NCBI GenBank assembly: GCA_963695545.1
Contig: OY968796.1
Coordinates: 512,001 to 576,000, forward strand
DNA: 64,000 nt
Source: Terriglobia bacterium
GTDB taxonomy: Bacteria > Acidobacteriota > Terriglobia > Acidiferrales > UBA7541
Direction of reading: 5' to 3'
Shown: positions 3,646 to 43,600 of the stretch, one piece after another
How positions within the stretch are numbered: position 1 is the first letter of the stretch
Layout: the number at the start of each line of letters is the position of its first letter
Position numbers and translations under genes: made by a program
Notes under the pieces: model-generated
Databases searched by the model: none
What the model saw: the letters and a program-made list of their open reading frames with translations, nothing else
Told to the model about the DNA's origin: nothing

Positions 3646-4060
3646 ATTCGAAAGAATTCCCACAGCCTATTCGAATAACCCACACGTTATTGTTGACATA
3701 AGCGGCATAGACATGCTATCGTTGTACATGAATTTCAGGGGCCCACATTCGCCCTCGTTTTTCCCACCGGCATCCCCAGAGAAACTCGCGCGCACGAATT
3801 TTCGATGTGCACTGCCCGAGCCTCTCTCCGCCCGTCGTGCATGGCCTTCCCACCATAATCGGATCGTTGCGACCGATGCGCATTCACTGCTGCCAAACCC
3901 CCTCTCCAAACCTTTTATTTTCAGCGAATTAAAAAAGAGTGCGCATCTCGCTCATAATAAACATCTTTATCACCTTTTCTTTTCACACTCATCCGCACTC
4001 TTTCGCCGCAAGTCCTGTATTTGCCGCACTTACGCAAAACATACCCGGGGTGTATATACT
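3646..4060 (+). repeat. Dispersed promoter/leader/repeat element, copy A
   Basis: TTCGAA 3647 and 3670; TTGACA 3693-3698, N18, TATCGT 3717-3722, N5, ATG 3728; stem AAAGAGTGCG 3934-3943 / CGCACTCTTT 3994-4003; AAGT-N14-ACTT 4010-4031; CCCGGGGTGTATATA end. A 24-bp block is identical to 43218-43241. Confidence 0.85.
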
Positions 4061-4288
4061 CGTTTTGTCCTCAATCCGTCCGCCGACCACCGCCAAAACG
4101 CCGAAGGCCCGCAAAATCAGCGAGTTCGCGCAATTTTGAATGAAACACATCGGAATCTTGCGGGCTCGGCCGAGTGCATCGCCCGCGCGCTGAGTGCTAG
4201 CATGGATTGTGGAGGAAAGTCTTCCGATGCCACGACGCCGGCTAGACAACACTCGAACAATGCCAGGATTAGGACCTGGCGGTTATGA
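3728..4288 (+). CDS. Putative leaderless leader ORF inside element copy A (186 aa, may not be a functional protein)
   Basis: Open from ATG 3728 to TGA 4288, which overlaps the HAD gene start (ATGA); shares SKPFIFS-x-L-x-KSA with the copy C ORF. Confidence 0.3.
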   Translation: MNFRGPHSPSFFPPASPEKLARTNFRCALPEPLSARRAWPSHHNRIVATDAHSLLPNPLSKPFIFSELKKSAHLAHNKHLYHLFFSHSSALFRRKSCICRTYAKHTRGVYTRFVLNPSADHRQNAEGPQNQRVRAILNETHRNLAGSAECIARALSASMDCGGKSSDATTPARQHSNNARIRTWRL

Positions 4289-5112
4289 CCAACGGATACC
4301 TGATCGATATGGACGGCGTGATCTACCGCGGCTCGGAAGCCATCCCGGGCGCCGCGGATTTCATTCGCTATTTGCAGCTTGAAGATATTCCCTACCTGTT
4401 TCTCACCAACAATTCCAGCTACATGCCCCTCGATGTGGTTCACAAGCTGCGCAAATTTCACATCGAGACGTCCGAACATCACGTCTACACCTCCGCCCTG
4501 GCCACCGCCGATTTCGTGCACAAGCAGCGGCCGCACGGCACGGCCTTCGTCATCGGCGAAGGCGGCTTGCTCAAGGCCCTGAACGACGTCGGCTACGCCA
4601 TCAGCCGCGAAAATCCCGATTACGTGATCGTTGGCGAAGGCCGCACCCTGAATTTTGAGCTCGTCGAACAGGCGCATCGCATGATCGCCCGCGGCGCGAA
4701 ACTTCTTTCCACCAATTCAGACACCTGGTGCCCCACCGACTCCGGACCGCGCCCCGGCTGCGGCGCCATCGTTGCGCTGCTCGAATCCGCCTCGGGCGAA
4801 AAGGCCTATCACGTCGGCAAGCCGAATCCCTTCATGATGCGCGCCGCGCGAAAACGCATCGGTCTGCGCACTGAAGAAGTCACCATGATCGGCGACACCA
4901 TGGAAACCGATATTCGCGGCGCCACCGATCTCGGCTTCCAAAGCATCCTCGTGCTCACCGGCTCCAGCACGCGCGACACGCTGAAGTCCTATCCCTTCAC
5001 GCCAACCCGCGTCGTCGAATCGATCGCGGAGCTGTTGCCGCCGGCGTCGCGTTCCCTTGTCGCCGAGCTCAGCATCGCGTTCGATGTCCGCCGCGGCGCT
5101 CAACTCGAATAA
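4285..5112 (+). CDS. nagD: HAD-IIA hydrolase, NagD family
   Basis: YLIDMDGVIY, FLTNNS, GKPNPFMM, MIGDTMETDI, LVLTG motifs. Confidence 0.88.
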   Translation: MTNGYLIDMDGVIYRGSEAIPGAADFIRYLQLEDIPYLFLTNNSSYMPLDVVHKLRKFHIETSEHHVYTSALATADFVHKQRPHGTAFVIGEGGLLKALNDVGYAISRENPDYVIVGEGRTLNFELVEQAHRMIARGAKLLSTNSDTWCPTDSGPRPGCGAIVALLESASGEKAYHVGKPNPFMMRAARKRIGLRTEEVTMIGDTMETDIRGATDLGFQSILVLTGSSTRDTLKSYPFTPTRVVESIAELLPPASRSLVAELSIAFDVRRGAQLE

Positions 5113-5177
5113 ACGTTCGGCGCGCCGGCCGAATCTTGCGGCTTTTCTCCGGTGCGCAACGGTGAGAGAATTCGCGC

Positions 5178-6461
5178 GTGCAACCCCGCGCCACGTTCGC
5201 GCTTGCGCTCGCCGCGATTTCGATTCTCGCGGTCGAAGCGCCTCTTTCTCTTCGCGCGCAGAGCGCAACGGCAATGTCGCCTGCGCCGTCCGCCGCCGTC
5301 GCACAACCAGCGGCGATTGGGCCGCGCGTCTTCCGCACACCGCCTGCGACGCTCGCCGCGCTGCGCGAGCGCATCGCCGCCGGAAATTTCAGCGATCCCG
5401 CGCTCGATCAATTGCGCGCCGACGCCGATCGCGCGCTCGCCCAAGCGCCGCTCTCCGTCATCGACAAGCAGATCGCTCCGCCCAGCGGCGACAAACACGA
5501 TTACATGACCCTCGCTCCCTACTGGTGGCCCGATCCCTCGAAGCCCGACGGCCTGCCCTACATTCGCCGCGACGGCCAAACCAATCCAGAGATCCACAAA
5601 ATTCCCGATCATCAGAGTTTCGATACTCTAACTTCCTCCGCTTACGATCTCGCGCTCGCCTACTACTTGTTTCGCGACGAATCCTACGCCACGCACGCCG
5701 AACTCCTCCTGCGCGCGTGGTTCCTCGATCCCGCCACGCGCATGAATCCGAATCTGCAATATGCGCAAGCCGTTCGTGGCGTCAACGAAGGCCGCGGCAC
5801 CGGCCTGATCGAAACGCGCGATTTGGGCCGCGTTTGCGACGCCGTCGGTCTTCTGGCCGGATCGAAAGCCTGGACCGCTGCCGACGATTCCGGCCTGCAC
5901 GATTGGTTCGCGAAATTTCTCGATTGGATGCGCACAAGCCAGAACGGCAAGGACGAAGCCGCGGCCACCAACAATCACGGCACGTATTACGACGTGCAGG
6001 TCACCACATTCGCGCTGTTCGTTGGCGACACCGACTTTGCGAAACAAGTATTGAGCGACGCGCGCACCAAACGCATCGCTGTGCAAATTTCATCCGACGG
6101 CAAGCAGCCGCTCGAACTCGTGCGCACCAAATCGCTCGGCTACAGCACCATGAATTTGACCGGACTCTTCGAGCTTGCGCGCCTCGGCGATCGCGCCGGC
6201 GTCGATCTCTGGACGTACGAATCGCCCCAAGGCGGCAGCATCCGCAAAGCGCTCGATTATCTGCTGCCCTTCGTCGACGGCGACAAGAAGTGGCCCGATG
6301 CGCAAATTATAGATTTCGACGCGCACGAATTCACGCCGCTGCTGCTGATCGCCAGCGAAAAATACGGCGACCCTCATTATCGGGAAGTGGCATTGAAGAT
6401 CGATCCCGGCGTCGTTCGCGACGTCGACGCTTTCCTGGTTTCTTGGAAGCCCGCGCCGTAA
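5178..6461 (+). CDS. Secreted alginate lyase-family protein
   Basis: Signal peptide; PPSGDKHDYMTLAPYWWPDP, YIRRDG, MNPNLQYAQ, NNHGTYY, QPLELVRTKSLGYS motifs. Confidence 0.85.
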   Translation: MQPRATFALALAAISILAVEAPLSLRAQSATAMSPAPSAAVAQPAAIGPRVFRTPPATLAALRERIAAGNFSDPALDQLRADADRALAQAPLSVIDKQIAPPSGDKHDYMTLAPYWWPDPSKPDGLPYIRRDGQTNPEIHKIPDHQSFDTLTSSAYDLALAYYLFRDESYATHAELLLRAWFLDPATRMNPNLQYAQAVRGVNEGRGTGLIETRDLGRVCDAVGLLAGSKAWTAADDSGLHDWFAKFLDWMRTSQNGKDEAAATNNHGTYYDVQVTTFALFVGDTDFAKQVLSDARTKRIAVQISSDGKQPLELVRTKSLGYSTMNLTGLFELARLGDRAGVDLWTYESPQGGSIRKALDYLLPFVDGDKKWPDAQIIDFDAHEFTPLLLIASEKYGDPHYREVALKIDPGVVRDVDAFLVSWKPAP

Positions 6462-6532
6462 TCCCGTTCGCGCGTTCCGCAATTTCGCTTCGCGCCGGCA
6501 ACGGCCCACCCGATTGCGGACGCTCAGATTTC

Positions 6533-7891
6533 TCAGGACGCGTGCGGCCCCGTTTGCTGCAAGCGGCCGGCGGGCCCAGGATTCCGGTGATCCCGGCCTT
6601 TCATCGCATACAGCGCCACATCCGCCGCGGCCAACAAACTCTCGATCGTCTCGCCGTTTTTCGGATAACTGGCAACGCCCGTGCTGACGGAAAGTTTGGG
6701 ATCTCCGCCATCGTTTGCAAAACTGTGGCGAATGCGTTCGGCCACAAGCGTCGCCGCTTCGGCCTCGGTTTCCGGCAGCACCAGCGCAAACTCATCGCCG
6801 CCGAAGCGCGCCGCCGTGTCGATGTCGCGGCAGCCAATCGACAGCGCATCGGCCAGGCGGCACAGCGCGTGGCTGCCGGTCAGATGACCGTAACGGTCAT
6901 TGATTTTTTTCAAATGGTCGAGATCGAAAAGCAGCAGCGCGAACTCGCGCCGCGTGCGCCGCGACCTCTTGATCTCGCTGTCGAGCACGTCGACAAGTTG
7001 CCGGTAATTCGCGAGTCCCGTCAGAGAATCCTTGGCCGCCTGCTGGCGCAAGTGGCTTTCGAGCTCGCGCTGCTTGGTCACGTCCTCGACGATGATCTCG
7101 AATCCGTCTTTCTTGCGTTGCGCGCCTTTCACCTCGCGGCCGCTCAGCCGCACCTTCAGCGGCGTGCCGTCTTTTTTCGCCCAGTCGATTTCCAGAACGT
7201 CCGGCTGGTCTTCTTCCCCGTAGTGCCCGAGCAATTGTTTGCGCTTGGCCGGATCGCCGATGACTTCTCGCGTCAAATTCACGCTGAGCAGTTCTTCTCT
7301 TGTCGAATAGCCAAGCATGGTGATCAGCGCCTGATTGACGTCCAGAAATCCGCCGTCCGAATTGCAGCGGCACATTCCGTAAGTCAGGTTCCCGACCAGC
7401 GCGCGGTAGTGAGCTTCGGAGTGGCGCAGTTTTTTTTCCGCGCGATCGCGCTGCCCGCGCAATTCTTTTTCGCCCAGCGCGCGTCGAATCGCGATCGGCA
7501 AATGGCTGGCATTTTCAATCTCGATGCACTCCGCCACGCCTGCCGTCACAAGCTCTGCCACCTGCTCGCGTCCCAGCGTTTCCGTCAGGTAGATCACCGG
7601 GATTCGCCCTTCCTTGCCCTCGAACGATTCGTGCATCTGTGTGTCCCACCAACCGGGAACTGGGTACCTCGCCAGAATCACGTCGTAGTTATTGGCGTCC
7701 ATCTTTTCGGCAAATTGCTTCGCGCTCGCGACCATCTCGGATTTAATTTCAGATTGCGTGTGCTTCAATTCGTTCAAGCAGCGCGCGACCTCCGCGGCAT
7801 CGTCGTCCACAAAAAGCAGGCGCAGCACGGGCTGCCGCAGCAGAGCCTTGCCTCTTTTCGAGGCGATTCGCTGCCTTCCTTTCAACGCCAT
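6533..7891 (-). CDS. Atypical REC-PAS-GGDEF cyclase with Hypr-type Ser (GHLTGS)
   Basis: LLFVDDD receiver with no obvious phospho-Asp, PAS segment, DSLTGL, RDID I-site, RFGGDEF. Start uncertain (7891-7936). Confidence 0.88.
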   Translation of the reverse strand: MALKGRQRIASKRGKALLRQPVLRLLFVDDDAAEVARCLNELKHTQSEIKSEMVASAKQFAEKMDANNYDVILARYPVPGWWDTQMHESFEGKEGRIPVIYLTETLGREQVAELVTAGVAECIEIENASHLPIAIRRALGEKELRGQRDRAEKKLRHSEAHYRALVGNLTYGMCRCNSDGGFLDVNQALITMLGYSTREELLSVNLTREVIGDPAKRKQLLGHYGEEDQPDVLEIDWAKKDGTPLKVRLSGREVKGAQRKKDGFEIIVEDVTKQRELESHLRQQAAKDSLTGLANYRQLVDVLDSEIKRSRRTRREFALLLFDLDHLKKINDRYGHLTGSHALCRLADALSIGCRDIDTAARFGGDEFALVLPETEAEAATLVAERIRHSFANDGGDPKLSVSTGVASYPKNGETIESLLAAADVALYAMKGRDHRNPGPAGRLQQTGPHAS

Positions 7892-8393
7892 GCGCGCGTT
7901 TGCACTCGACATTATGGGCGCGGGGCGAACCAACACTTTCGCGGCGAGTTGCTCTCGCAGAACTACGAAGTGCTACGTATCGCCACCAGTATCAGAGTAG
8001 TATGTGCGTCGCTGTGCGATAGAACTTTTTTGGAGGGCGTTTCAGAGTGAAACAGTGGAGTTTTGCCGCGGAACTACGCTAATGCCATCGAACGCGAAAC
8101 ACTCGAAGAACCGCTCTTCCGTCAAGCCGTCCGGCGCAGAAAACCTCCCGGCTATTTCTAAGCGCCATTCTGACGCCGGGGGCCGGTACGGTCGTTCGTC
8201 GCCACAAAGCGGGCTGCGTCTTGCTCTTGCCCCGATAAGCTTGGGAGTGGGGTGCCCGCTCGGGGACTGTTCGACGCCATACGCACCGGCGCCCAGCATC
8301 AAGGCTATATTTGACAATAGAGCCAAACCCGAAAACTGTTCTTTTTCGCACACCCTGCGAAAATCGCGGCATGCTGCCAAAATGAAGGAAAAT

Positions 8394-8481
8394 TGGTGCC
8401 CGGGGTGGGGGTCGAACCCACACGACGCGTTAGCGTCAGGGGATTTTAAGTCCCCCGCGTATGCCATTCCGCCACCCGGGC
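8394..8481 (-). tRNA. tRNA-Leu, anticodon TAA
   Basis: GCCCGGGTGGCGGAATGGCATACGCG-GGGGA-CTTAAAA-TCCCC-long variable arm-GTGGGTTCGACCCCCAC-CCCGGGC-ACCA; acceptor stem, T loop and encoded CCA present. Confidence 0.97.
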
Positions 8482-8631
8482 TGTGCACAAACAACCGTAT
8501 ACTAATGAACGAGTTGCTTACAAGACTGGCATCTCGGCGCGTGTCGCGTTCTTGACGCTAACGCCTGACGGCGCGACGCCGCGGCTCCGGCGCGGGCCCC
8601 AGCCGCCGGCCGCCAGCAACTTGGGTCCGCC

Positions 8632-9456
8632 ATGACGACGATAAGCCAGCGCGCGCGACATTCCGGGCTCTACGCCGCCGTGGCCCTGCTCGCCGCTTCC
8701 CTGCTTGCTTCCCCAAGAGCGCGCGCACAGGGCGGCCCTCCCCTACTCACCAACGACCCCGGAACTCCCGGCGCCGAAAACTGGGAGATCAACGTCGCCG
8801 CGATGCCCGTCCTCACCCGCGACGCGCACAACTACCAGCTTCCGCAGTTTGACATCAACTACGGCATCGGCTCGCGCATTCAGCTCACGCTCGAAATTCC
8901 TTACGTCGTCGCAACTTTCCCGGGCCAGCCCCATGCCACCGGCTGGAGCAATGCTTTCCCCGGCGTGAAGTGGCGTTTCATCGACGCGAAACACGGCTGG
9001 AACGTCTCCATATTTCCGCAACTCGAGACCGGCGGCGCTTCCGGCGACGTGCGCAAAGGCATTGCCGATAGCGGCACGCGATTTCTCCTCCCGCTCGAAC
9101 TCCAGAAAAATATCGGCCCCGTCGAACTCAACGCCGAAGCCGGCTATTATTTTCCGTTCCACGAAACGAATCAGGGCCACGAAGAACGAATCCTCGGTTT
9201 CGCCGCCGGCCATCAATTCACCAAAAAATTGGAAATCATTGGCGAGATTTACAACGACTCCGCCATGGGCGCCCTTCCTCACGACACCACCTGGGACGCC
9301 GGCGGCCGCTACGAATTTCACAAAGGCCTGATCTGGCTCGCCATGGCCGGCCGCAGTTTCAGCGGCGCCGCCAGCGGCGAACCCACCTTCCTCGGATATT
9401 TCGGCATCCAGATTCTGCTCGATCACAACGGCCGCTCACTCCACTCCGATGAGTGA
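8632..9456 (+). CDS. Secreted or outer-membrane beta-rich protein
   Basis: Signal peptide ending ARA-Q, GGPPLLTNDPGTP motif, amphipathic strands (GVKWRF, LNAEAGYYF, DAGGRYEF). Confidence 0.65.
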   Translation: MTTISQRARHSGLYAAVALLAASLLASPRARAQGGPPLLTNDPGTPGAENWEINVAAMPVLTRDAHNYQLPQFDINYGIGSRIQLTLEIPYVVATFPGQPHATGWSNAFPGVKWRFIDAKHGWNVSIFPQLETGGASGDVRKGIADSGTRFLLPLELQKNIGPVELNAEAGYYFPFHETNQGHEERILGFAAGHQFTKKLEIIGEIYNDSAMGALPHDTTWDAGGRYEFHKGLIWLAMAGRSFSGAASGEPTFLGYFGIQILLDHNGRSLHSDE

Positions 9457-11513: not shown

Positions 11514-11810
11514 TCACCACACCTTCCGAAGATTCCGAAGTCCCTCGAGATAATCGTCCGTTTCCAACCTGTTCGTAACTCCAAATTCCGTCAGAATCGT
11601 CATCATCTGCCCGACAGGCAGCCCTGCCAAATCAGCCGCTTTCCCCAGCGACGCTTCGCCCGCTTTATATCGTTCCACCGCCAGCAGCATTCTTCCCCGA
11701 GTGACCAGGTCGCGCACCGCTTTCGACAAGTCGCTCCGTTCTTCCTTGCTGATCTCGCTCAAAAACTCGTAATTGTCCTGATCCATTCGGATGCTCATCG
11801 TTTTACTCAT
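11514..11810 (-). CDS. UPF0175-like antitoxin with N-terminal RHH-like segment
   Basis: MSKTMSIRMD...SKAVRDL, then YKAGEASLGKAADLAGL; 4-nt overlap with the PIN gene. Confidence 0.75.
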   Translation of the reverse strand: MSKTMSIRMDQDNYEFLSEISKEERSDLSKAVRDLVTRGRMLLAVERYKAGEASLGKAADLAGLPVGQMMTILTEFGVTNRLETDDYLEGLRNLRKVW

Positions 11811-12310
11811 GGATTCGCCTCCAACCTGACCTTCGCATCTTCAATTATGGAAGCCTTGTAACGCCCGTATCTTGCCAGCACCGCCAGTTTGGCCATCGCA
11901 CTCTCAGGGCCCAATAGTCCCTTCTCTCTGCTCCGAATCAGAATGCCTATCGCGGTCGTGAACGCAATTCTCACAACCTTGCACGCATTGATTCCATTCT
12001 TGTCATCAACGGCCAGGAGTTGGGCCCTCTCATGGAGCGCAACTGCGATTGCCTCGGCCTCACCCTTGCCGAGGCCGAAATCCGCCTGCAACTTACGGAC
12101 CAGCCTCCGATCCTTCACAGCCACCACTCTGATTCTTGACTCATCCAAAGCCTTCCGAATTACCAATCCATCCAACGTTTTCTTCGACCCGCAACACTCC
12201 CGCTCCACTTCGGCTGGAATAACAAACCCGAGTTTGCCGTCCGCCAGGAACAGGTCGAGCAACTCGGCCTTCGCTGTCAGAATCAGCGTAGATGCGTCGA
12301 GAACAATCAT
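11807..12310 (-). CDS. PIN-domain (DUF3368-like) toxin
   Basis: MIVLDASTLI, IPAEVERE, LGKGEAEAIA, LAVDD acidic PIN motifs. Confidence 0.85.
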   Translation of the reverse strand: MIVLDASTLILTAKAELLDLFLADGKLGFVIPAEVERECCGSKKTLDGLVIRKALDESRIRVVAVKDRRLVRKLQADFGLGKGEAEAIAVALHERAQLLAVDDKNGINACKVVRIAFTTAIGILIRSREKGLLGPESAMAKLAVLARYGRYKASIIEDAKVRLEANP

Positions 12311-12321
12311 TATTACACAAT

Positions 12322-12408: not shown

Positions 12409-12730
12409 TTCGAATGGCGATCCACAGGAAACGTATTCGAACTGTGGATTTCTGTTCGAATGGCTTAATAATTATATTGACAGTGTAGTACTCTACGTGC
12501 TATGCTCCCGCATGACCATCGAACGGCACTTCCCGCCCGCAGATTCCTCGGTGAAGGACGGCCGATTCGCGCTACGCCGCGCCGGTCTTTTTCACGTCTC
12601 GCCCCGCAACCCTTCCAGAATCAACACTTCTGAAAAATCGCGTTTTAACCCCAGTAGAATCAACACTTCTGGCGCAAAGGACTTAAAGTTCAATCATTTC
12701 AACACTTCTGAAAAACACCCCGGGGGTAGG
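12409..12730 (+). repeat. Dispersed promoter/leader/repeat element, copy B, with three 39-bp units
   Basis: TTCGAA 12409, 12436, 12455; TTGACA 12477-12482, N18, TATGCT 12501-12506, N5, ATG 12512; TCAACACTTCTG at 12621, 12660, 12699; CCCCGGGGGT end. Confidence 0.85.
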
Positions 12731-12781
12731 GGGGTGCGCCCTCCCCGACGAATCGATTTTTTGAATGAAAGGAGCCTATGA
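12512..12781 (+). CDS. Putative leaderless leader ORF in element copy B (89 aa, NPSRINTS repeats)
   Basis: Open through the 13-codon repeats; its stop overlaps the next ATG (ATGA 12778-12781). Confidence 0.35.
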   Translation: MTIERHFPPADSSVKDGRFALRRAGLFHVSPRNPSRINTSEKSRFNPSRINTSGAKDLKFNHFNTSEKHPGGRGVRPPRRIDFLNERSL

Positions 12782-13278
12782 ACATGAAAACCAAGACCGC
12801 ACGGAAATCAGCAAGCCGCAACATCGCAAGGAACCCGCAGAAGCTCGCCGAAAGCGCCATGTCCGACGCGCGCTGTAAATTCAAGTTCGCCGACGCGCGC
12901 TCCTGCGGCATACCACGCTGGAAAGGCCATGCCTCTTACTGCCTCTTCCACGCCCGCCAGGAACAGCAGCTTCTCGATGCCGATCGCGTCGGCACGGAAC
13001 TCGCCAGTCTCTCCGGCGAATTTCGCACAACCACCGATCTCAATCACGCCCTCGGCAAACTTTTCGCCGCCGTCGCCCAGAATCGTATTCCTCCGCGCAA
13101 CGCCGCCGTGATCGCCTACATCGGTCAACTCCTGATGCAAAGCCTCTCTGGCGTAGAGCGAGAGATCAAACACGCCGACGGCTACGAAGCCTGGGACGAC
13201 ACCATCCGCCGCACTCTCGACGCTGAAGAAAACGAGGAGGAAGAAGAGGACGACGACGAGGCGGGTGATGGCAAGTAA
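12778..13278 (+). CDS. Hypothetical protein with C-x9-C-x11-C-x2-H zinc-finger-like motif and acidic tail
   Basis: CKFKFADARSCGIPRWKGHASYCLFH; basic N-terminus; EEEEEDDDE C-terminus; AAAGGAG SD. Confidence 0.8.
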   Translation: MNMKTKTARKSASRNIARNPQKLAESAMSDARCKFKFADARSCGIPRWKGHASYCLFHARQEQQLLDADRVGTELASLSGEFRTTTDLNHALGKLFAAVAQNRIPPRNAAVIAYIGQLLMQSLSGVEREIKHADGYEAWDDTIRRTLDAEENEEEEEDDDEAGDGK

Positions 13279-13383: not shown

Positions 13384-14460
13384 ATGAGCGCGCAGACGAA
13401 GAAGACTTACAAGATTGCGGTGATCGCGGGCGATGGCATTGGCCTCGAAGTCGTGCCGGAAGGCATTCGCGTTCTCGAGGCCTCCGCACGGCGCTTCGGC
13501 TTTTCGCTTGCCTGGCACAATTTTGATTGGAGCTGCGAAAGGTTCGTCGCCACCGGTCTGATGATGCCCGCCGACGCGCTCGATCAGTTGCGCGCGTTCG
13601 ACGCGATTTTTCTCGGCGCTGTCGGGCATCCGCGCGTGCCGGATCACGTTTCGCTTTGGGGACTTCTGATTCCGATTCGCCGCGCGTTTCGGCAGTACGT
13701 CAATCTGCGACCCGTGCGCCTATTCCCCGGCGTCGAATCGCCGCTGAAAAATTATCCGCCGGGCCGGATCGACTTCTGCGTGGTGCGCGAAAACAACGAA
13801 GGCGAATATTCCGAAATGGGCGGCCGCATCTATCGCGACACGCCCGATGAATTCGCCATCCAGGAAACCATCTTCACGCGCCGCGGATCGGACCGCATCA
13901 TTCGCTACGCCTTCGAGCTGGCCCGCACGCGTGCGAAACATCTCACCTCCGCCACCAAATCGAACGGCATCATCCACACCATGCCCTTCTGGGACGAGCG
14001 CTTCGCCGCCGCCGCAAAAGATTTCCCCGATGTGCGCACCGACCAATTCCACATCGACATACTCGCCGCGCATTTCGTGAAGCATCCCGATTGGTTCGAT
14101 GTGGTGGTCGGCTCGAATCTTTTCGGCGACATTCTTTCCGATCTCGGTCCCGCCGTCGCCGGCTCAATCGGCATCGCCCCCTCGGCCAATCTCAATCCCG
14201 AGCGCGAATTCCCTTCCATGTTCGAGCCCGTGCACGGCTCAGCACCTGATATCGCCGGAAAAGGCATCGCCAATCCCATCGGCCAAATCTGGAGCGGCGC
14301 CATGATGCTGCGCCATCTCGGCGAACCCGCCGCCGCCGATGCCGTCGAGCGCGCGATTGAGACAGTCCTCGCCACAGGTGGCCCGAGAACTGCAGACCTC
14401 GGCGGCAAAGCAAACACAAAAGCAGTAGGGGAGGCCATCGCCGCCGAAACTTCGCGCTAA
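13384..14460 (+). CDS. Tartrate dehydrogenase / D-malate dehydrogenase (decarboxylating)
   Basis: IAGDGIGLEV, VPDHVSLWGLL, NLFGDILSDL, SMFEPVHGSAPDIAG. Confidence 0.92.
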   Translation: MSAQTKKTYKIAVIAGDGIGLEVVPEGIRVLEASARRFGFSLAWHNFDWSCERFVATGLMMPADALDQLRAFDAIFLGAVGHPRVPDHVSLWGLLIPIRRAFRQYVNLRPVRLFPGVESPLKNYPPGRIDFCVVRENNEGEYSEMGGRIYRDTPDEFAIQETIFTRRGSDRIIRYAFELARTRAKHLTSATKSNGIIHTMPFWDERFAAAAKDFPDVRTDQFHIDILAAHFVKHPDWFDVVVGSNLFGDILSDLGPAVAGSIGIAPSANLNPEREFPSMFEPVHGSAPDIAGKGIANPIGQIWSGAMMLRHLGEPAAADAVERAIETVLATGGPRTADLGGKANTKAVGEAIAAETSR

Positions 14461-14464
14461 TACT

Positions 14465-16642
14465 CTAAGGAAGGGAAACCCCGAATTGACCGCGCAATCG
14501 AATGTCGCGCGAAGAAGCGCCGACCATCACATGAATCGTTCCCGGCAAAATCGTCCAGGCGTGCGTCGCGACATCCCAATACGACACCGCGCGGGCATCA
14601 AGTGTGAATTGAACATGCGCCGTCTTCCCCGGATCGAGCGCCACTTTCTGGAAGCCCTCAAGTTGTAGCGGCGGTTCCGGAACAGCGGAACGCGAAGGCA
14701 GTCCGAGATACAGCTCCGCGACTTCAGCGCCCGCCACAGTTCCGGTATTCGTGACGTCGCATGAAACCGTCACCGTCGAATCCGTGGCGCCGCCAAATTG
14801 CGCATGATCGGGCGAGATCTCGAGGTGATCGTACGAGAACGTGGTGTAAGAGAGGCCGAAGCCGAATGGAAACAACGGCTCGACCTTGTGCTCGTCGTAA
14901 TAGCGATAGCCGACGAATACGCCTTCGCTGTAATGCGCCTGGCGATCGACGCCGGGCCATTGTTCGGGCGTGTGCGCTGGAGCGTCTTCCACGCGCTTCG
15001 GGAACGTGATCGGCAGCTTGCCCGATGGATCGATGTCGCCGAAGAGCACGGCCGCAACGGCGTTGCCGTCCTCTTCGCCGGGATACCACGCCTCGAGCAG
15101 CGCCGGCACCTGATCGAGCCACGGCATCAGGATCGCGGAGCCGGTCTTGAGCACCACGACGGTGTGCGGATTTGCGGCGGCCACGGCGGCGACGAGAGCG
15201 TCCTGATTGCCTTCGAGCGTCAGCAGATGGTCTTTGCCCTCGGTCGCGTGGTCGCCCACCATCACGATGGCCACGTCGGCCGAGCGCGCAAGATCGGCGG
15301 CCTTGGCAGGATCGCTGCCGTCGGCGTAGGTGACGCTCACGCCGGTTCCAACGCGGCCCTGAATGCCGTCAACGGGTTTGACGCTATAGAGCGCGACGAC
15401 GTGGGAGCTGCCGCCACCGCCGGTGTTCGCCTCCCCCGCATACGGCCCGATCACCGCGATCGATTTCAAGGCCGAAGCGCGCAGCGGCAGCAGCTGCCCG
15501 GAATTTTTCAGCAACACCATGCCCGCTTCTGCGATGCCGCGCGCGGCCGCGCCGTCTTTCTGCGCCGGAATCGCTTGCGGCGCCGGCGGATGATCGAACA
15601 GGCCGAAGCGCATCAGCGTGCTGAAGCGGCGAACGAGCATCTGGTCAAGCGTGGCCTCGGGCACTTCGCCAGACTGCACGGCGGCTTTGAGAGGATCACC
15701 GAAGTAAAGGCCGGTTGGCCACTCCATGTCGAGGCCGGCCGTGACCGCCGGCACGATGCTGTGCGTGGCCCCGAAATCGGAGATCACGAAGCCCTGGAAA
15801 CCCCAATCGCCGCGCAGAATCTGCGCGAGCAGCGTGGGGTTCTCGCACGCGAACACATTGTTCACGCGGGGATACGCGCACATCACGGAGGCGGCGTGCC
15901 CCTCTTTGATCGAAGCCTCGAACGCCGGCAAATAAATTTCGCGCAGTGTGCGCTCGTCGACGATCTCGTTCACCACGAAACGATCGGTCTCCTGATTGTT
16001 GGCGTCGAAGTGCTTTACGTTGGCCAGAATTCCCTGGCTCTGAATTCCGGTGATATTGGCAACCGCGAGGCGCGCCGTGAGAAACGGATCTTCGCCGTAT
16101 GCTTCAAACGTGCGGCCATTCTGCGGGAGGCGGGCGATGTTCACGTCCGGTGCTTCGAGCAGACTGTTGCCGATATCTTTGGCTTCCGCGCCGGCGATCT
16201 CGCCATAGCGCTGCGCGAGATTCACGTCCCAGGTGGCCGCGAGCGCGATCGGCGAAGGCAGCGCCGTGGCCGGAACTTGCTTGCCCGCGCCGCCGGGTCC
16301 CGCGCCGGCGGGACCATTGGTGATGTGGAAGTCGGGGATGCCGAGGTGCGGGATGCCGGGCACCATGCGGAACTGCGTGTCGTTATGCACTCCATGAACT
16401 TGAGAAATTTTCTCGTCGAGCGTCATTTGCGCAACGAGAGCTTTGGCGCGCGCGTCGGGATCCTGCTGCGAGGTGGCCGGAATGGCGACGATGAAAGCGG
16501 CCGCGGCGGCGAGAAGCATCAACGCGCGGCGAATTGAGACGCGGCGCGCCGCGCGAAGATCATGCGCGGGCCCACGGCTTCGCCAGCCGGCGATCGGGGC
16601 CGTGCTGCTGCGCGCTTCGCGGAATCGGATTCGCATGATCAC
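14465..16642 (-). CDS. Secreted GH3 beta-glucosidase with Fn3-like C-terminus
   Basis: MTLDEKI, GRTFEAYGEDP, VKHF, GFVISDF, YSEGVFVGYRYY. Start approximate. Confidence 0.9.
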   Translation of the reverse strand: MIMRIRFREARSSTAPIAGWRSRGPAHDLRAARRVSIRRALMLLAAAAAFIVAIPATSQQDPDARAKALVAQMTLDEKISQVHGVHNDTQFRMVPGIPHLGIPDFHITNGPAGAGPGGAGKQVPATALPSPIALAATWDVNLAQRYGEIAGAEAKDIGNSLLEAPDVNIARLPQNGRTFEAYGEDPFLTARLAVANITGIQSQGILANVKHFDANNQETDRFVVNEIVDERTLREIYLPAFEASIKEGHAASVMCAYPRVNNVFACENPTLLAQILRGDWGFQGFVISDFGATHSIVPAVTAGLDMEWPTGLYFGDPLKAAVQSGEVPEATLDQMLVRRFSTLMRFGLFDHPPAPQAIPAQKDGAAARGIAEAGMVLLKNSGQLLPLRASALKSIAVIGPYAGEANTGGGGSSHVVALYSVKPVDGIQGRVGTGVSVTYADGSDPAKAADLARSADVAIVMVGDHATEGKDHLLTLEGNQDALVAAVAAANPHTVVVLKTGSAILMPWLDQVPALLEAWYPGEEDGNAVAAVLFGDIDPSGKLPITFPKRVEDAPAHTPEQWPGVDRQAHYSEGVFVGYRYYDEHKVEPLFPFGFGLSYTTFSYDHLEISPDHAQFGGATDSTVTVSCDVTNTGTVAGAEVAELYLGLPSRSAVPEPPLQLEGFQKVALDPGKTAHVQFTLDARAVSYWDVATHAWTILPGTIHVMVGASSRDIRLRGQFGVSLP

Positions 16643-16677
16643 TCCTCAAGAAACGGAGACGGCGCGCTGCTTGCGTT

Positions 16678-17457
16678 TTATGTCGAACGATTGAGACGCG
16701 ACGAAATATCTTTGGCGGCGCTTTTCACCGAGGCGGCGAACGACGGGATTTTGTCGCGGCTGATGCGTGTGATCGGTCCAGAGACACTGAGGGCCGCCAC
16801 AATTTTGCCAGAGTCGTCCAGAATCGGAGCGGCCACGCAGCGCGCGCCGAGAACGGCTTCTTGATCGTCGAGCGCGAAGCCCTGGCGGAAGATCTTCGCG
16901 AGTTCTTTGCGCAGCCGGGCGGCGTCGGGAATGGTGTGGTTGGTCACGCGCTCGAAGCTCAGAGAGGCGAACATCTCCTCGCGTTGCTCGAGCGGAAGAA
17001 ACGCAAGCAGCGCCTTGCCCAGGCCGGTGCAATAGAGCGCGCGGCGCATGCCAACCTGCGAGCCCATGCGAAACATGTGGCCGCTTTCGATGACGTCGAG
17101 ATAGAGAATTTCGTGGCCGTCGATCACCGCGAGGTTGACGGTTTCCTTGGTGGTGCGCCACACCTTTTGCAAAGCTGGGCGGCTGACTTTGCGAAGCGTG
17201 GCGTGGAAGGAAATGCCGGCGCCGAGATGCGCCAAGCGCGGGCCGATGACGTAGGCTCCGCTATCGTCGCGAAACAAGTAGCCGGCGCCTTCAAGGTGGG
17301 CCAGAAAACGATAGGCGGTGCTCTTGTGAATGCTGGTCTGCTGGGCGATCTGGCGCAACTGGAGGCCGGTGGGCGAGCTATCGAGAGCTTCGAGAATACG
17401 AAGCACCTTGCCCACAACACCAACCGGGGCGGCTTTGGACTGTCGAGCTCGAATCAT
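16678..17457 (-). CDS. IclR-family transcriptional regulator
   Basis: N-terminal HTH (KSTAYRFL), ETVNLAV, YCTGLGKALLA, GARCVAAPI. Confidence 0.9.
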   Translation of the reverse strand: MIRARQSKAAPVGVVGKVLRILEALDSSPTGLQLRQIAQQTSIHKSTAYRFLAHLEGAGYLFRDDSGAYVIGPRLAHLGAGISFHATLRKVSRPALQKVWRTTKETVNLAVIDGHEILYLDVIESGHMFRMGSQVGMRRALYCTGLGKALLAFLPLEQREEMFASLSFERVTNHTIPDAARLRKELAKIFRQGFALDDQEAVLGARCVAAPILDDSGKIVAALSVSGPITRISRDKIPSFAASVKSAAKDISSRLNRST

Positions 17458-18142
17458 GGCGTGGACGGCGGATCGTGGAATTGGCTCAAAAAGGGGAAGC
17501 AGACCCGCGAAGCTCGGATCCGGAAGCAGCAATCCGCCGGAGGTTCCTTTCTAGACCGCGGTGCGCGGCATTTTTAGAAACTAAAATGCAAGTTTTCAGT
17601 TCTAAATCGAGAGCGCGCGGCGCGCACCGCGACACTGTTTTATATGTTGAACCGGGGGGAAGCAAGGGAAATCTGATCGGCCGGAGGGCGCGGGCAGCGC
17701 GTCCGCGGACGGTCTATTTCAGGATCCGAAACGGTGATTCTTTACGTTGAATCTTGCGGAAATTCTTGATACAAGCCTCTTGCGTGAACCGCGATCACGC
17801 CGCGCCGCAAGCCACCGGCGACATTCGGCAGCCGGGCACGGCGGCGAATTTGGCTTTGGAGAGCTTGCAGCACCCCAACCACGGTCCGTCCGCGAGAATG
17901 CGCCTCACGGCCACCCCTCATGGACGCCCTGGGAAACCTGCAAGGACCGCCGGACGGGCAGCGCCGAACCTCCTAGCGGCGCTGCCTTCTCGGTGGGGCG
18001 GCCGAGGCGGGACAATGATTGCGAAGTTCGCGCGCACGCCGGCAGGCGAATCCGATACAATCTGCGGCGCTCAGGTGACGGGCGCAGCAACGTGAAGGAC
18101 GTACGCGCGGGGCTGCGGGTTCGCTCGGGCGCGTTGAGTTAG

Positions 18143-38580: not shown

Positions 38581-38774
38581 ATGCGCGGAATCCACTCCTC
38601 CGGACCGCCTGGCATACACCATTAGATGACCCGACGATGCACGGGTATTCACTCAATTTAGCATGGGTCACCCCAAAACACCGCCGCTAACGCCCAGCCG
38701 CGCGCCCCGGCCCTCCCCAAATTCGCCTTTACAGATGTGCCGCCGAATCCGTAGTCTTAAGCCTACGAGGAAAC

Positions 38775-39221
38775 ATGTGGAACGTTGACGAGCCTTTCTC
38801 TCCCCAAACTTTGGAGGCCCTGCCGAAAGCCGGCTTCGCCGTCGGCAGCACGCGCGGCGTAATGCGCGTCGAACGCTACGGCTGCGGCGCTGAATTCCGC
38901 CGCACGCCCAACGGCCACTTCGTGATGACCATCCTCCCCACCATCCTGATGAACGGCAATTTCACGCGCCTGTGGGACGCCGGCTACCAGAAATTCCTGA
39001 TCACCGACGACGGCCGCAAGCTCCCCGCGCAGGCCGAAGAGTTGGTGCGCATGCGCCGCTTCAATGAAGAGCTGCGCACCGCGCTCGGCGTGCCCACGTA
39101 TTACAACGAAGCCCTCGGCTCGACTTGCCAGGTCACCGAGTACGATCGCGTCGCCGGCCGCCGCGGCGATGTGCCCGACAGCGGCGTCGGCGCCATTCCC
39201 GACGACGGCGCAAATCACTAA
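38775..39221 (+). CDS. Hypothetical protein, divergent from the sulfur-carrier cluster
   Basis: GAGG SD; RLWDAGYQKF, YYNEALGS, YDRVAGR; GC-rich third positions. Confidence 0.75.
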   Translation: MWNVDEPFSPQTLEALPKAGFAVGSTRGVMRVERYGCGAEFRRTPNGHFVMTILPTILMNGNFTRLWDAGYQKFLITDDGRKLPAQAEELVRMRRFNEELRTALGVPTYYNEALGSTCQVTEYDRVAGRRGDVPDSGVGAIPDDGANH

Positions 39222-39274
39222 AGCATGCGAAAGGCCGCGCGCATGACAACGTTCCATAACCGCGACGTCGCGAA

Positions 39275-39309
39275 CCGCTCGCCACTCACCACTAGCCAAT
39301 CGCCACTGG
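39275..39309 (+). repeat. Degenerate heptamer tandem repeat, 5 units
   Basis: ccgctcg-ccactca-ccactag-ccaatcg-ccactgg, intergenic. Confidence 0.7.
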
Positions 39310-39315
39310 TCTAAA

Positions 39316-39921
39316 ATGACCGGTCTCGACAAGCTCCGCCTCACAGCCTTCGCGGTGGTCGTGGCCAGTTGGCTTGGCTTTAGTCTTGTCTTCTTTTTGG
39401 CGCGCCGAAAACTCCCGGCCAAGACGCAAGAAGCCAAACGCGATCCCGCATCGTATTGGGGTATCGCCATACAAACCGTCGCCATCTTCATGGTTTGGGC
39501 GTTTCATCGCAGCGACCTCGGCCCAATCCTGCCGATGCTGCCAGGGCCGCAGTGGGCGCAGGCCGCGATCTTGATCGCTGCGATGCTCATCGCGGTTTTC
39601 TCGCTGTGGCTCAGCATCGCCGCGGTTCGCACGCTCGGCAAGCAATGGACCTACGTCGCGCGTGTGATTGAGGGCCATCGTCTAATCACTGAAGGTCCTT
39701 ACAATTTGGTGCGCAATCCAATTTATCTCAGCATGTTCGGCTCGCTCGTCGCCACCGGCCTGGTTTTCGGCAAATGGTGGGCGTTCTTGCCCGCCGTCAT
39801 CATTTTCTTGATCGGCACCCAGATTCGCATCTCGCGCGAAGAAAAACTCCTCTGCGCGACCTTCGGCGACGAATGGACCGATTACACCCGCCGCGTCCCC
39901 GCCTTCTTCCCCGGCTTCTAG
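39316..39921 (+). CDS. Isoprenylcysteine carboxyl methyltransferase-family membrane protein
   Basis: HRLITEGPYNLVRNPIY, EEKLL..FG..W.DY..RVP. Confidence 0.88.
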   Translation: MTGLDKLRLTAFAVVVASWLGFSLVFFLARRKLPAKTQEAKRDPASYWGIAIQTVAIFMVWAFHRSDLGPILPMLPGPQWAQAAILIAAMLIAVFSLWLSIAAVRTLGKQWTYVARVIEGHRLITEGPYNLVRNPIYLSMFGSLVATGLVFGKWWAFLPAVIIFLIGTQIRISREEKLLCATFGDEWTDYTRRVPAFFPGF

Positions 39922-40232
39922 CCCCGCGCCGCCTCTTCCAGCTGACGCCGAAATTGCGCCGCCAGCACGCGATGCTTCGCCACCTTCCGCGCGCCCAGAA
40001 AAATCACCGGCACATCGAAATCGTGCCGCGCGCGCAACACCGCATCCTCATCAATATTCACTTCCCGCATCCGCGCCCCAAACTCCGCCAGCAGCGGTGC
40101 CATCACACGCTTCGCCTCTTCGCACAGATGGCACCCCGGCCGCGTATAAAGCGTCACGTCAAGCGCCGCTGCCGCGGCCAGCCGGCCATCTTCCTCGCCA
40201 GTCGGTTTATTGGTGGGCTTATCGGTAGGCAT
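39918..40232 (-). CDS. Glutaredoxin-like protein (DUF836 type)
   Basis: TLYTRPGCHLC, VPVI. Confidence 0.85.
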   Translation of the reverse strand: MPTDKPTNKPTGEEDGRLAAAAALDVTLYTRPGCHLCEEAKRVMAPLLAEFGARMREVNIDEDAVLRARHDFDVPVIFLGARKVAKHRVLAAQFRRQLEEAARG

Positions 40233-40424
40233 ACGGACCATTGCGCCACCGCCCCTTATAACCCAGCGCGCGCCCCTGCCGAAAGTCGTCCGGGCGATAG
40301 GTGGCGCCTCGGATTCCCGCCGTCCCCATTATCAAGCTCCCGTTGTTGAACAATGCCTTGTACGCCCCATACGCTTCACTTAGAATCCCAGCAATTCAAG
40401 TATCCGGCGAAAGAGAACGCAACA

Positions 40425-41117
40425 ATGAGCGCAAGAATCGTTTTGCTCCTATCGCTCCCTCTGGTTCTTCTGGGGAGCGCGGCCGTCGCCATTCCTGGAT
40501 CTCCCGCGCCCGCCGGATCACCGTCCCAGATAACCTACACACTCATGGGAAGGAAGATGGCAGCGCCGGGTGCAAAATACCGAAGCTCGAATCGCATTTT
40601 CGCCATTGTCGTTCCGCCAATCACCGGCTTCGACAGTCCAACCTGGCGCGCATTCGACGATTGCCGCAAAGGTGACCACGAAGCCGTGATGCTCCGCGTA
40701 GTCGACTTCGGCGAAATGTACCGCGCCGGAGTCGTTTTCGAGCCAGCGGGAGAGGTGGATCTCGATACTATTGCGCCGCAACTCATGATTTCCGACAAGA
40801 GCCAGATCGGCGCCCCTCTTGAATCGATCGAGGAAACTCACGTAAGCACACAATTCGGCGACGCCACGCTGCGATTGTACTCAATCAAGGGCGGCTCGCT
40901 GATTGTGACCACTGCCCTCGGTCAAAAGCGCCAGAAACCCGAATCCCACGATAGTTACATTGCTCTCCTGGTCGTGCGCCAACCTGGTCGCATTCTGTTT
41001 GTCGCCGCGCAGGACGACTATGTGGGCATCATTGACAAAACGGCCGATGACGCGTGGAAGCAAGCGCTGAAGGCCCAAGCGCAAGCCCTCTTCGCCACCA
41101 TGACCCTCGGCAAGTGA
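40425..41117 (+). CDS. Hypothetical secreted protein
   Basis: Signal-like MSARIVLLLSLPLVLLGSAAVA; no family recognised. Confidence 0.65.
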   Translation: MSARIVLLLSLPLVLLGSAAVAIPGSPAPAGSPSQITYTLMGRKMAAPGAKYRSSNRIFAIVVPPITGFDSPTWRAFDDCRKGDHEAVMLRVVDFGEMYRAGVVFEPAGEVDLDTIAPQLMISDKSQIGAPLESIEETHVSTQFGDATLRLYSIKGGSLIVTTALGQKRQKPESHDSYIALLVVRQPGRILFVAAQDDYVGIIDKTADDAWKQALKAQAQALFATMTLGK

Positions 41118-41401
41118 GTGTTTTGCCGCGGCGAAGCATGTCCCCGCCTGCTCTGCTTGATGATCGCGCGCAGGATGGCTCCTTGCTTCACGACAGTCCT
41201 TGAGGAAATTCCCTCCCCGTCGATTCTTCGTGGAGAGAATATGACGGGGCTCCCTTCTGCCGCGTCACTTGCTCGACATGCTCAAAATTCAGACGAGAGC
41301 CATCAGCAAGCACCGGTAAGCAAATTTCGCACCCATCGATGCCGCTAGCATGGTTGGCCGTCTCGACTCCTGTAGAATGATTCTTTGAAGGAATTGCAGC
41401 G

Positions 41402-42403
41402 ATGAAAAGTCTATCCGAGACCCCACTCTCAGTCTTAGATCTCGCTCCGATCCGAGAAGGAAAATCTCTCGCAGACACCTTTGCCGCGTCGTTGGCTCTG
41501 GCGCGCTACGTCGAATCGCTTGGCTACAAAAGATTCTGGTTGGCCGAGCATCACAACTTGGCGGGCGTCGCGAGCTCCGCGACCTCCGTTCTCATCGGCT
41601 TCATCGCTTCCGGAACGAAAAAGATTCGCGTCGGCTCCGGCGGAATCATGCTCCCCAACCACGCGCCACTCATGGTCGCCGAAGAATTCGGAACCCTCGA
41701 AACTCTCTATCCCGGCCGAATCGACCTGGGTTTGGGCCGCGCGCCCGGCACAGATCAAGCCACCATGCGCGCGCTGCGGAAACGTCTAGGTCCGGAAGAC
41801 GACTTTGAAGAGCTGTTGCAGGAGCTGCAATTTTTTCTGGCCCCCGCGAAACCGAATCAGCAACTGCGCGCAATTCCCGGCGCGAATTTAGACATTCCCA
41901 TTTGGATTCTCGGCTCCAGCCTGTACAGCGCGCACCTGGCCGCCGCTCACGGTTTGCCCTACGCCTTCGCCGGTCACTTCGCGCCGGAAGAAATGCTCAA
42001 TGCGCTCGTGATCTATCGCCGCGAGTTCCAGCCTTCCGAAGTCTTGAAAAATCCCTACGTGATGATCGCCACGCAAGCCCTGGCTGCCGACACTGACGAG
42101 CAGGCCGATTTTCTGTCGACCACTCTCTACCTAAGATTCTTGGGCCTGATCCGCAATCAACGAACCGCTTTGTTGCCGCCCGTGAAGGACACCAGCAATC
42201 TCTGGTCGCCTTCCGAGCACCAAGCCATAAAGAACCGGCTTCGCTATGCCGCCATTGGCGGCCCAGCAAAAATTGCGGGCTCGCTCCAGAACTTGATCGA
42301 CCTGACGCAAGCCGACGAACTCATCATCAACTCTGAGCCCTACGACAGCGCCGCTCGCCTCCGCTCCTTTGAAATCATCGCCGGCTCCAGATCGGCCCAC
42401 TGA
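41402..42403 (+). CDS. LLM-class flavin-dependent oxidoreductase
   Basis: [38 protein letters not shown]. Confidence 0.92.
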
Positions 42404-42689
42404 CCTAGTTCGCCACCTGGAAATCTTCCAGGCGACCGCACGTACGCACCCGCTCATTCTGATCGGAGTGCTGACCTTCTTGCCCCGCGGCCACGCCAGC
42501 CAGCCGCGCGCTCTTCGAGGTTTGGCCACACGGCGCCTCACACCCCGATCAAGGGCCGGCGAAAGTGTCCGAAATGAAACAGCCTCGCGAGTGGGTCCCG
42601 TTGTTAAATATGCCTCCGACGCTTGGCATCCGGACTGAAAGGCAGTCGGCCGGCGTGCCGCGAAGGTATCGCAGTTCTTGGGATAACCG

Positions 42690-43175
42690 ATGCCAATCGA
42701 AGTGCTTTTGGCCGATGACACCGATTTCGTGCGCAAGGCGATTCGCCGCCTTCTCGAGAGCGATCCTGAAATCCAGCTCGTGGCCGAGGCGACTACCTTG
42801 CATCAAGTAATCGACATTGCAGGCAAGCTGCGGCCGCATGTCATCGCCATGGACCTGCACATGGATCGTCACGCAACGACCACTCCGTTACGATTGAAAT
42901 CATCCATCGGCATCTCGCCGCTGGTGGCAATCTCCATTTGGACGGACGACGAAGCCAAAGCTCTTGCCGATAGTCTCGGCGCTGTCGCGCTGCTGGACAA
43001 AGTAAACCTTGTCGTCGAACTAATTCCGACAATAAAGCGGTATTCTCACGTTCACGGACAGACCGCGAGCGCCGAGCAGGCGGCCCAGCTTGAGTGGCGC
43101 GAGAATAAGTCCCGGTCGGCCGTCCCCTTTCCGCAGCCTCGCGCTAACCATGGCCCTTTTGGCCCTTCACGTTAG
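42690..43175 (+). CDS. Stand-alone response regulator receiver
   Basis: VLLADD, PHVIAMDLHM, LLDK; no output domain. Confidence 0.8.
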   Translation: MPIEVLLADDTDFVRKAIRRLLESDPEIQLVAEATTLHQVIDIAGKLRPHVIAMDLHMDRHATTTPLRLKSSIGISPLVAISIWTDDEAKALADSLGAVALLDKVNLVVELIPTIKRYSHVHGQTASAEQAAQLEWRENKSRSAVPFPQPRANHGPFGPSR

Positions 43176-43194
43176 CCTCATCCATCTTCCACAA

Positions 43195-43600
43195 TTCGAA
43201 TGAATTTCCACAGCCCTCTATTCGAATAACCCACACGTTATCATTGACATGTACGCCAAAAGCGTGCTACCGTTGCACATGACTTGCGAACGCACATCGG
43301 CACCGCTGAAAACTCCGCTTGCGCTGTGCCCCGGCATGAGTTTTCCGCATATAGAGGAGGAGGTTGCCTCCACCCGCATTACCCCGCCGGCCAAATATCG
43401 TCGATACAACTCGATCAATCCTCACTCTTCTGCATCAAAGTGCCCCTCCAAACCATTTATTTTCAGTCTCTTGCAAAAGAGTGCGCAACTGATTGAATAC
43501 AATCGCTTTCATCCACTTTATTTTCACACTCATGCGCACTCTTTCGCTGGAACTCCTTTGTTTACATCATTTTACACTTTTGGTACCGGGGGTATATATA
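43195..43600 (+). repeat. Dispersed promoter/leader/repeat element, copy C
   Basis: TTCGAA 43195 and 43221; TTGACA 43244-43249, N18, TACCGT 43268-43273, N5, ATG 43279; stem AAAGAGTGCGCA 43476-43487 / TGCGCACTCTTT 43533-43544; ACCGGGGGTATATATA end. Confidence 0.85.

Follow-up and report, generated by a model that had tools for sequence, protein, structure and literature searches.

Evenly spaced promoter, leader-ORF and repeat cassettes beside strand-skew flips in a Terriglobia chromosome: candidate transcription-launched replication origins

The usual view is that a bacterial chromosome replicates from one origin and that gene transfer agents (GTAs) have no defined start sites. Some phage and plasmid origins, those of lambda, T4 and ColE1, are transcription-activated or RNA-primed, and their initiation depends on transcription. 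A 64,000-nucleotide stretch of the genome of a Terriglobia bacterium (Acidobacteriota; assembly GCA_963695545.1, contig OY968796.1, positions 512,001 to 576,000 of the forward strand; "the window" below means this whole stretch) carries three copies, A, B and C, of a cassette in which a promoter block, a leaderless open reading frame (ORF) and a 3′ block of AT-rich units follow one another in fixed order. About 112 copies are spread evenly over the genome, and strand bias tends to flip from negative to positive a few kilobases downstream of them. The reading favored here, with a probability of roughly 0.45, is that the cassettes are transcription-launched local bidirectional replication origins, probably derived from the early region of a domesticated phage.

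The lambda, T4 and ColE1 origins resemble the cassette in having a promoter upstream of repeats and an AT-rich stretch, with a G-run in the transcript. They differ in being single phage or plasmid origins that initiate within a few hundred bases, whereas here 3.5 kb separate cassette and flip, and the transcript, with its leader ORF, is probably translated. Putative mobile promoters and repeats of the repetitive extragenic palindrome (REP) and miniature inverted-repeat transposable element (MITE) types are likewise dispersed intergenic repeats with a promoter that stand before unrelated genes; unlike them, the cassettes are old and diverged, lie at even intervals, mark the skew flips and include a dedicated gene as well as an ORF under selection. 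Archaeal multi-origin chromosomes and eukaryotic N-shaped skew domains show a similar sawtooth of strand bias between many initiation zones, but the present case is a bacterium with dnaA, polarity like that of FtsK-orienting polar sequences (KOPS) and a dif-like site, and it has one site per 36 kb. For GTAs, one paper (PMC2697382) describes the Bartonella agent BaGTA, which pairs phage-derived head genes with a run-off origin that starts bidirectional replication of host DNA. The present genome also has conserved phage-derived head genes alongside candidate phage-derived origins. BaGTA uses one origin to amplify one region, whereas here there are about 112 sites, one every 36 kb, each with a promoter and a leader ORF, and a lasting skew imprint replaces the usual skew between oriC and terminus. 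According to a 2019 paper (PMC6854486), no discrete packaging start sites or replication genes were known for GTAs, and PMC5786225 gives seven packaging peaks and no motif. Agents of the RcGTA type share with this genome vertically kept single-copy head and terminase genes and a small-terminase-like protein that is short and has no evident DNA-binding head; the defined repeated cassette and the initiator-like gene set the present case apart, and here the agent is a putative one.

The first-pass annotation of the window described the three copies as a dispersed element of fixed architecture, and all the motifs and coordinates it claimed are present base for base. The parts of the copies, and the two flip zones that lie within the window, are as follows.

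3647..3722, + strand: promoter block of copy A, from sequence and family profile, with two TTCGAA boxes, CCACAG, the -35 TTGACA (3693) and an extended -10, TGnTATCGT (3714-3722).
3728..4288, + strand: leaderless ORF of copy A, 186 codons; its stop overlaps the start of a HAD gene (ATGA at 4285).
3901..4060, + strand: 3′ block of copy A, K type, with 22-bp units at 3909 and 4010, inverted 12-mers at 3934-3945 and 3992-4003, and a G-tract end at 4044.
12409..12506, + strand: promoter block of copy B, with three TTCGAA boxes, -35 at 12477 and -10 at 12501.
12512..12781, + strand: leaderless ORF of copy B, 89 codons; its stop overlaps the start of the zinc-finger gene (ATGA at 12778).
12601..12736, + strand: 3′ block of copy B, R type, with three 22-bp units in a 39-bp period (12608, 12647, 12686) and a G-tract at 12718.
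12778..13278, + strand: gene for a Cys/His zinc-finger-like and helical protein, part of the full-length cassette, without the phage-shared tail discussed below.
43195..43273, + strand: promoter block of copy C, with two TTCGAA boxes, -35 at 43244 and -10 at 43268.
43279..43725, + strand: leaderless ORF of copy C, 148 codons, ending 16 nt into a receiver gene (start 43710).
43441..43603, + strand: 3′ block of copy C, K type, with a G-tract at 43586; an orthologous copy is present in relative G003 (L015).
14000..18000, no strand: skew-flip zone past copy B, where synonymous G/C skew goes from about -0.4 to about +0.3, about 3 kb beyond the copy.
46000..50000, no strand: skew-flip zone past copy C, from about -0.3 to about +0.25, about 4 kb beyond the copy.

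The TTCGAA boxes start at 3647 and 3670 in A, at 12409, 12436 and 12455 in B and at 43195 and 43221 in C, with CCACAG at 3660, 12422 and 43208. A gap of 17, 16 and 17 bp leads from box to TTGACA (3693, 12477, 43244), the 18-bp spacers end in TGC, and TAnnnT (3717, 12501, 43268) is followed 5 bp on by ATG (3728, 12512, 43279); the G-rich ends lie at 4044, 12718 and 43586. A -10 that has TG two bases before it and is followed after 5 bp by a start codon is the layout of a leaderless transcript. Copies A and C belong to subtype K and copy B to subtype R. The 24-mer that A and C had been said to share is there (at 3667 and 43218, with four copies in the genome in total), as are the 28 of 42 ungapped matches between the closing units of A and B. 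Similarity between A and C is confined to short stretches and reaches about 80% at most. In the K block, 45-46 bp separate two inverted 12-mers, which lack covariation and are therefore read as DNA sites; the 22-bp units resemble the IHF consensus and may be sites of that type.

The window lies within a single 4.16-Mb contig (60.6% GC) of the source genome (G000). A strict promoter pattern gave 51 distinct seeds, a weight matrix extended these to 60 copies after two weak matches were discarded, and profiles of the promoter block and of the two kinds of 3′ block gave 115 clusters genome-wide. A 3′ block is present in 113 of them (91 of K type, as in A and C, and 22 of R type, as in B). Later family tests used the 112 copies whose 3′ block scored above 30 bits, and the spacing test used 114 clusters above 30 bits. 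The promoter profile matched at 92 places, of which 90 are followed by a 3′ block in the same orientation (about 1% expected by chance for each), and 32 of these 90 paired copies were outside the 60 used for model building; the promoter pattern has 45 exact matches in the genome against 0 for a reversed control. The two blocks thus co-occur far beyond chance and form a composite element rather than a pathway regulon, as had been proposed for the window copies. Spacing between clusters averages 36.5 kb with a coefficient of variation of 0.59 (random sets 0.99 ± 0.09; 0 of 10,000 as low). No palindromic hexamer in the genome is more depleted than TTCGAA (0.30 of the expected number), and the cassettes contain 212 of its 564 sites. 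A LexA regulon was considered and rejected: TTCGAA is absent from the stretches read upstream of recA and lexA, and lexA has a TTCGCC direct repeat instead. That repeat, TTCGCC-N5-TTCGCC upstream of lexA (2,228.5 kb) with a partial copy upstream of recA (2,212.3 kb), is a candidate LexA box of the lineage.

The cassettes stand in a directional relation to strand bias. In the 3,361 genes of the source genome (own gene caller), G/C skew at four-fold sites, oriented by cassette, runs at about -0.3 upstream, reaches zero near +4 kb and has risen to +0.17 at +10 kb. Genes on either strand follow this course, which disposes of a gene-strand artefact as the cause; along the genome the skew track is a sawtooth. 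For 77 isolated copies, a fitted ramp is about 4 kb wide with its median center 3.5 kb downstream. Skew is negative upstream of 101 of the 112 copies, positive downstream of 90, and both in 81. Conversely, of 85 origin-like flips, 78 lie where a cassette points (such positions cover 36% of the genome), against 7 of 85 for a pointing-away control. Strand bias therefore changes from negative to positive regardless of gene strand, displaced 3.5 kb downstream of the cassette, as is expected of an origin. The seven flips without a pointing cassette, at 491, 654, 751, 948, 1442, 2240 and 3987 kb, have no second cassette evident, and it is possible that they mark lost copies or another site type.

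The ordinary replichore term is absent from the skew (-0.007 ± 0.008), and on the origin reading this absence would point to the cassettes starting a large share of all replication. KOPS-like octamers, GMAGGGAA, nevertheless show polarity, and this changes over at a dif-like site (near 3,374 kb) that lies opposite dnaA (1,364 kb). Loss of RNase HI or of dnaA was rejected as a cause, since both genes have matches in the genome. The change around cassettes is mainly a G/C exchange, in which G/A and C/T shift oppositely around the mean, and four-fold-site GC is not lowered near cassettes (0.836, against 0.811 far away). These two features fit fork polarity and are unlike an added lesion load, and one-strand damage added near cassettes is accordingly unsupported by the GC and mutation-spectrum data. 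An additive profile fitted per cassette reaches from about -24 to +28 kb, and limited-range synthesis may remain compatible with it. Both ribosomal RNA genes, 23S at 1,240 kb (+) and 16S at 1,602 kb (-), are unlinked and point towards dnaA, head-on to its forks.

The ATG of the cassette opens a real, selected ORF. A start was found by pattern in 75 of the 112 copies, and in 70 of these 75 the frame has no stop before the 3′ block ends; the other two frames give 10 and 2 such cases and shuffled sequences 2.7. Lengths vary from 160 to 638 nt. The R units lie in one frame (44 of 44), whereas the K motif is read in two (28 and 16); therefore translation, and not a peptide, is what is kept. The three leader ORFs of the window have no Pfam match. 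The open frame is carried past the cassette. Of 53 ORFs that precede a co-oriented gene, 11 end in an RTGA overlap with it, as in copies A and B, and 9 fuse to it. Among 18 ORFs that face an opposite gene, 12 lie in the long-open antisense register (p 0.004, with a relaxed finder), and 10 run for more than 500 nt, compared with 15%, 2% and 2% in control frames.

A cassette with a selected ORF leaves little room for the non-coding RNA family with its own regulated promoter that the first-pass annotation had offered as one possibility. The promoter-like start and the ability of the K-type inverted 12-mers to pair speak for such a family. Over the 12 base pairs of those 12-mers in 76 copies, however, there are 2 two-sided changes and no sign of compensation, a C:C mismatch recurs in 52 of 76, R-type copies have no such stem, and the ORF is under selection. 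The suggested Rfam query returned, over the window, only tRNA and Acido-Lenti-1, with no match over the cassettes. This idea is largely refuted and very improbable. That query, together with 0 matches among phage and plasmid records, does uphold the statement that the cassette is not a named element. The Acido-Lenti-1 RNA lies at 44150-44195 (-) of the window, with 28 similar places genome-wide.

A mobile cassette of promoter and leader ORF that drives downstream genes, and that settled or was retained beside flips of other cause, would account for the next gene being co-oriented in 77 of the 112 copies. It would also suit the way the ORFs meet that gene: of the 53 before a co-oriented gene, 40 reach its start (54 of 106 for control frames). 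Gain and loss of cassettes between relatives is on its side as well. G004 has neither copy A nor the toxin-antitoxin pair that precedes this copy, and G003 retains just the 3′ end of copy B's gene. The earlier idea of a mobile or recombinogenic unit holds to this extent, over the long term, and the empty site it had asked for exists; copy C, on the other hand, is site-conserved in G003 at a divergence similar to that of its neighbors, and the target duplication it had asked for is not seen by eye at A's empty site. No terminal inverted repeats appear in the alignments, no transposase is seen with the cassettes, the copies are old and diverged, and contigs of four sequencing runs contain no joint that skips copy C, the copy checked. 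Targeting of tRNA genes is not evident either (5 of 112 copies within 1.5 kb of a tRNA, 4.5 expected). The evenness of the spacing, the set direction of the flips and their set distance, ORFs extended into opposite genes and the equal skew pattern around an unrelated cassette in G023 (below) would all go unexplained, and a mobile promoter is quite improbable. The pair upstream of copy A is a Gp49-like gene with a helix-turn-helix gene (2733-3496, -); a second toxin-antitoxin-like pair, UPF0175 with a PIN-like gene (by eye), directly precedes copy B (11514-12310, -). A tRNA-Leu(TAA) gene lies at 8397-8481 (-).

Taken together, these findings call for a process with a direction, one that begins at the cassette, needs a translated transcript and leaves fork-like polarity to either side of a zone a few kilobases downstream. 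Transcription-launched initiation accounts for the promoter, the ORF, the offset and the absent oriC skew. In such a scheme a regulator at the TTCGAA boxes would control a sigma70-type extended -10 promoter, and the leaderless ORF would keep ribosomes on the transcript and so prevent early termination. The 22-bp units (bending-protein-like sites) and the inverted 12-mers would then bind a loader, most likely a phage-type initiator encoded beside head genes and perhaps aided by the cassette zinc-finger protein. Unwinding or RNA priming would follow in a zone 1-8 kb downstream, from which two forks would run about 20-25 kb outward, either in ordinary growth or only when phage particles are induced.

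The candidate partner proteins come from a single phage cluster at 3.386-3.419 Mb, 12-45 kb from the dif-like site (3,374,127, -) at which the GMAGGGAA octamers switch strand. It contains terminase, capsid and endolysin genes and a weak initiator match. The terminase was found by Terminase_6N (PF04466 and PF03237 on relatives), while the TerL_ATPase and Phage_portal families were not found in this genome. IS3-like transposase genes lie at 3,400,048-3,401,192, between portal-sized and capsid genes, and this insertion may have broken the cluster in this strain. The comparison set comprises 41 genomes, and no claim depends on G007 or G013. Of these 41, 14 have the capsid gene in one copy (13 of 40 when the unpublished G013 is left out), with 55-92% identity that follows kinship, so that conserved single-copy head and terminase genes are inherited with the host, as expected of a GTA. 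The initiator-like gene, a phrog_1408 match at E 3e-4, occurs in 11 of the 41. In the source genome it has a cassette pointing towards it at a distance of 5 kb, and in G004 at 7 kb. In genomes with the same cassette type, counted by hand, the initiator match is present in 8 of 11 and the capsid match in 6 of 11.

The zinc-finger-like gene has four paralogs in the source genome, every one directly after a cassette. Of 20 homolog loci inspected by eye in G015, G018 and G022, the majority have a cassette promoter or repeats upstream. A 91-aa protein of the phage cluster, with a DUF5681-like lead (score 0.94, 164 features), ends in a tail, PVIWDMPGPDRE, that is exact in one cassette-borne paralog and near-exact in two more; three of the four paralogs thus share it, copy B's being the exception. 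A six-frame scan for the tail pattern gave 4 matches, 3 of them these tail-bearing proteins. The zinc-finger protein has no match in Pfam or PHROGs, a PDB search with the family alignment gave nothing under E 0.45, and its model (pLDDT 82.5, pTM 0.62) has no fold match at E 0.001 in the PDB or among viral models.

These proteins also suggest the main competing account, in which the cassettes are pac-like packaging start sites of a GTA. Zinc-finger adaptors would recruit terminase, the cut would fall near the G-tract, pieces of about 10 kb would be packed downstream, and in recipients the fragment ends would, after resection, prime outward DNA synthesis and so produce the offset flip. The single-copy terminase, capsid and endolysin genes near the dif-like site fit this account, as does the tail common to the 91-aa protein and the cassette-borne paralogs, which recurs in homologs from G018 and G022. 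So do the lopsided skew profile (a -0.33 plateau upstream and a broad +0.21 peak at +10 kb), the gathering of low-GC DNA on the upstream side only (27% of 500-bp bins below 56% GC, against 9% genome-wide and 3% downstream) and the terminase and capsid matches in G023 and G017. However, G018, G021 and G022 lack a terminase match, although G018 has 11 zinc-finger genes and strong local skew, and the G023 terminase match is in four pieces (C1 412,601-414,013), whose stops point to a broken gene or assembly errors. Neither copy B's protein nor any of the 82 homologs fetched with it has the tail, the viral contigs searched have 0 matches for the cassette DNA motif and 0 for the zinc-finger protein, and no fold match to a small terminase was obtained. 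Packaging also leaves an ORF held open into antisense DNA unexplained and would need transfer frequent enough to outweigh ordinary replication. It is possible but unlikely. The origin and packaging readings might also be joined, as in Bartonella.

Other genomes extend the cassette-skew association beyond the source. The exact promoter pattern is present in 4 of the 41 genomes and an R-type end in 10. G015 has a diverged cassette form of the same layout and, in 20 stretches of 20 kb, strong local skews without a replichore pattern, with cassettes at several flips and some exceptions. G023 has no match to the models from the source genome; it has a different cassette, a direct pair of TTCTAATCG 65-67 bp apart around an AT-rich unit, with 35 matches there (C1, e.g. 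L124 6830-6905) and 19 in G017. When the skew profile of the source genome is placed on the sites of G023, which belongs to another genus, its prediction holds in 46 of 56 bins (r 0.71, against 0.28 for reversed orientation). On the G017 sites it holds in 11 of 12 bins, with a reversed control that is not much worse (r 0.59). In a third genus the pattern is only partly reproduced, and G001, like G022, has weak local skew and few recognised cassettes. The sampled stretches of G017, G020, G021, G027 and G029 show no evident oriC-type flip at dnaA, so that none of these genomes serves as a cassette-free control with ordinary skew. Strong local skews (standard deviation 0.29) occur in G020 with neither cassette type found (sampled stretches L140-L179 of G020, G021, G027 and G029), and a third type may exist there.

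Several observations weigh against replication origins. The origin role and its mechanism are proposed from sequence and skew. Simulations of merging forks fit less well than the additive profile (cross-validated R2 0.36 for the best simulation, with one parameter, against 0.42 for the profile, with 40), and the flip sits 3.5 kb from the cassette instead of on it, at a position that follows neither ORF length (rho 0.15) nor the run of co-oriented genes (rho 0.08). Gene direction does not favor the local G-rich strand (743 of 1,632 co-oriented), and the orientation of the rpoBC operon fits the direction from oriC. The initiator identification is weak, its overlap with the cassette outside the genus (3 of 5 genera) is near chance, and G023 and G017 show the skew pattern without a phrog_1408-type match. 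G018 has many cassettes and no initiator, capsid or terminase match, and there upstream skew is negative at 17 of 20 cassettes, but a flip is present at just 5 of 20. G022, which has an initiator match, shows weak local skew (standard deviation 0.12) and two cassettes in 400 kb, with no flip. Two of three G023 cassettes examined have no evident promoter.

The even spacing, the skew flips and the phage link were beyond what a reader of the window could see. New here are the read-through tests of the leader ORF, the mutation-spectrum test, the comparison of skew models and the second cassette type in G023 and G017. No description of the cassette was found in the literature searched, which included few subscription papers and no supplements; PMC3372372 does not mention Acidobacteria, and the accessible text of PMC5900883, on Acidobacteria prophages, has no such element.

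A bolder version, speculative and rather unlikely, is that the lineage replicates much of its chromosome from more than 100 transcription-launched origins of phage descent, at eukaryote-like density, with oriC, KOPS and dif serving mainly segregation, lineage-specific cassette types swapped across the order, and a GTA as their source or client. Either of the two leading readings, local origins or packaging starts, would if true break one of the two rules named at the outset, in an abundant group of soil bacteria, and a short cassette with about 112 mapped copies and named candidate partner proteins makes both directly testable. The absence of the usual GC-skew plot in these genomes would be accounted for as well, and that absence affects origin prediction and estimates of growth rate from read coverage.

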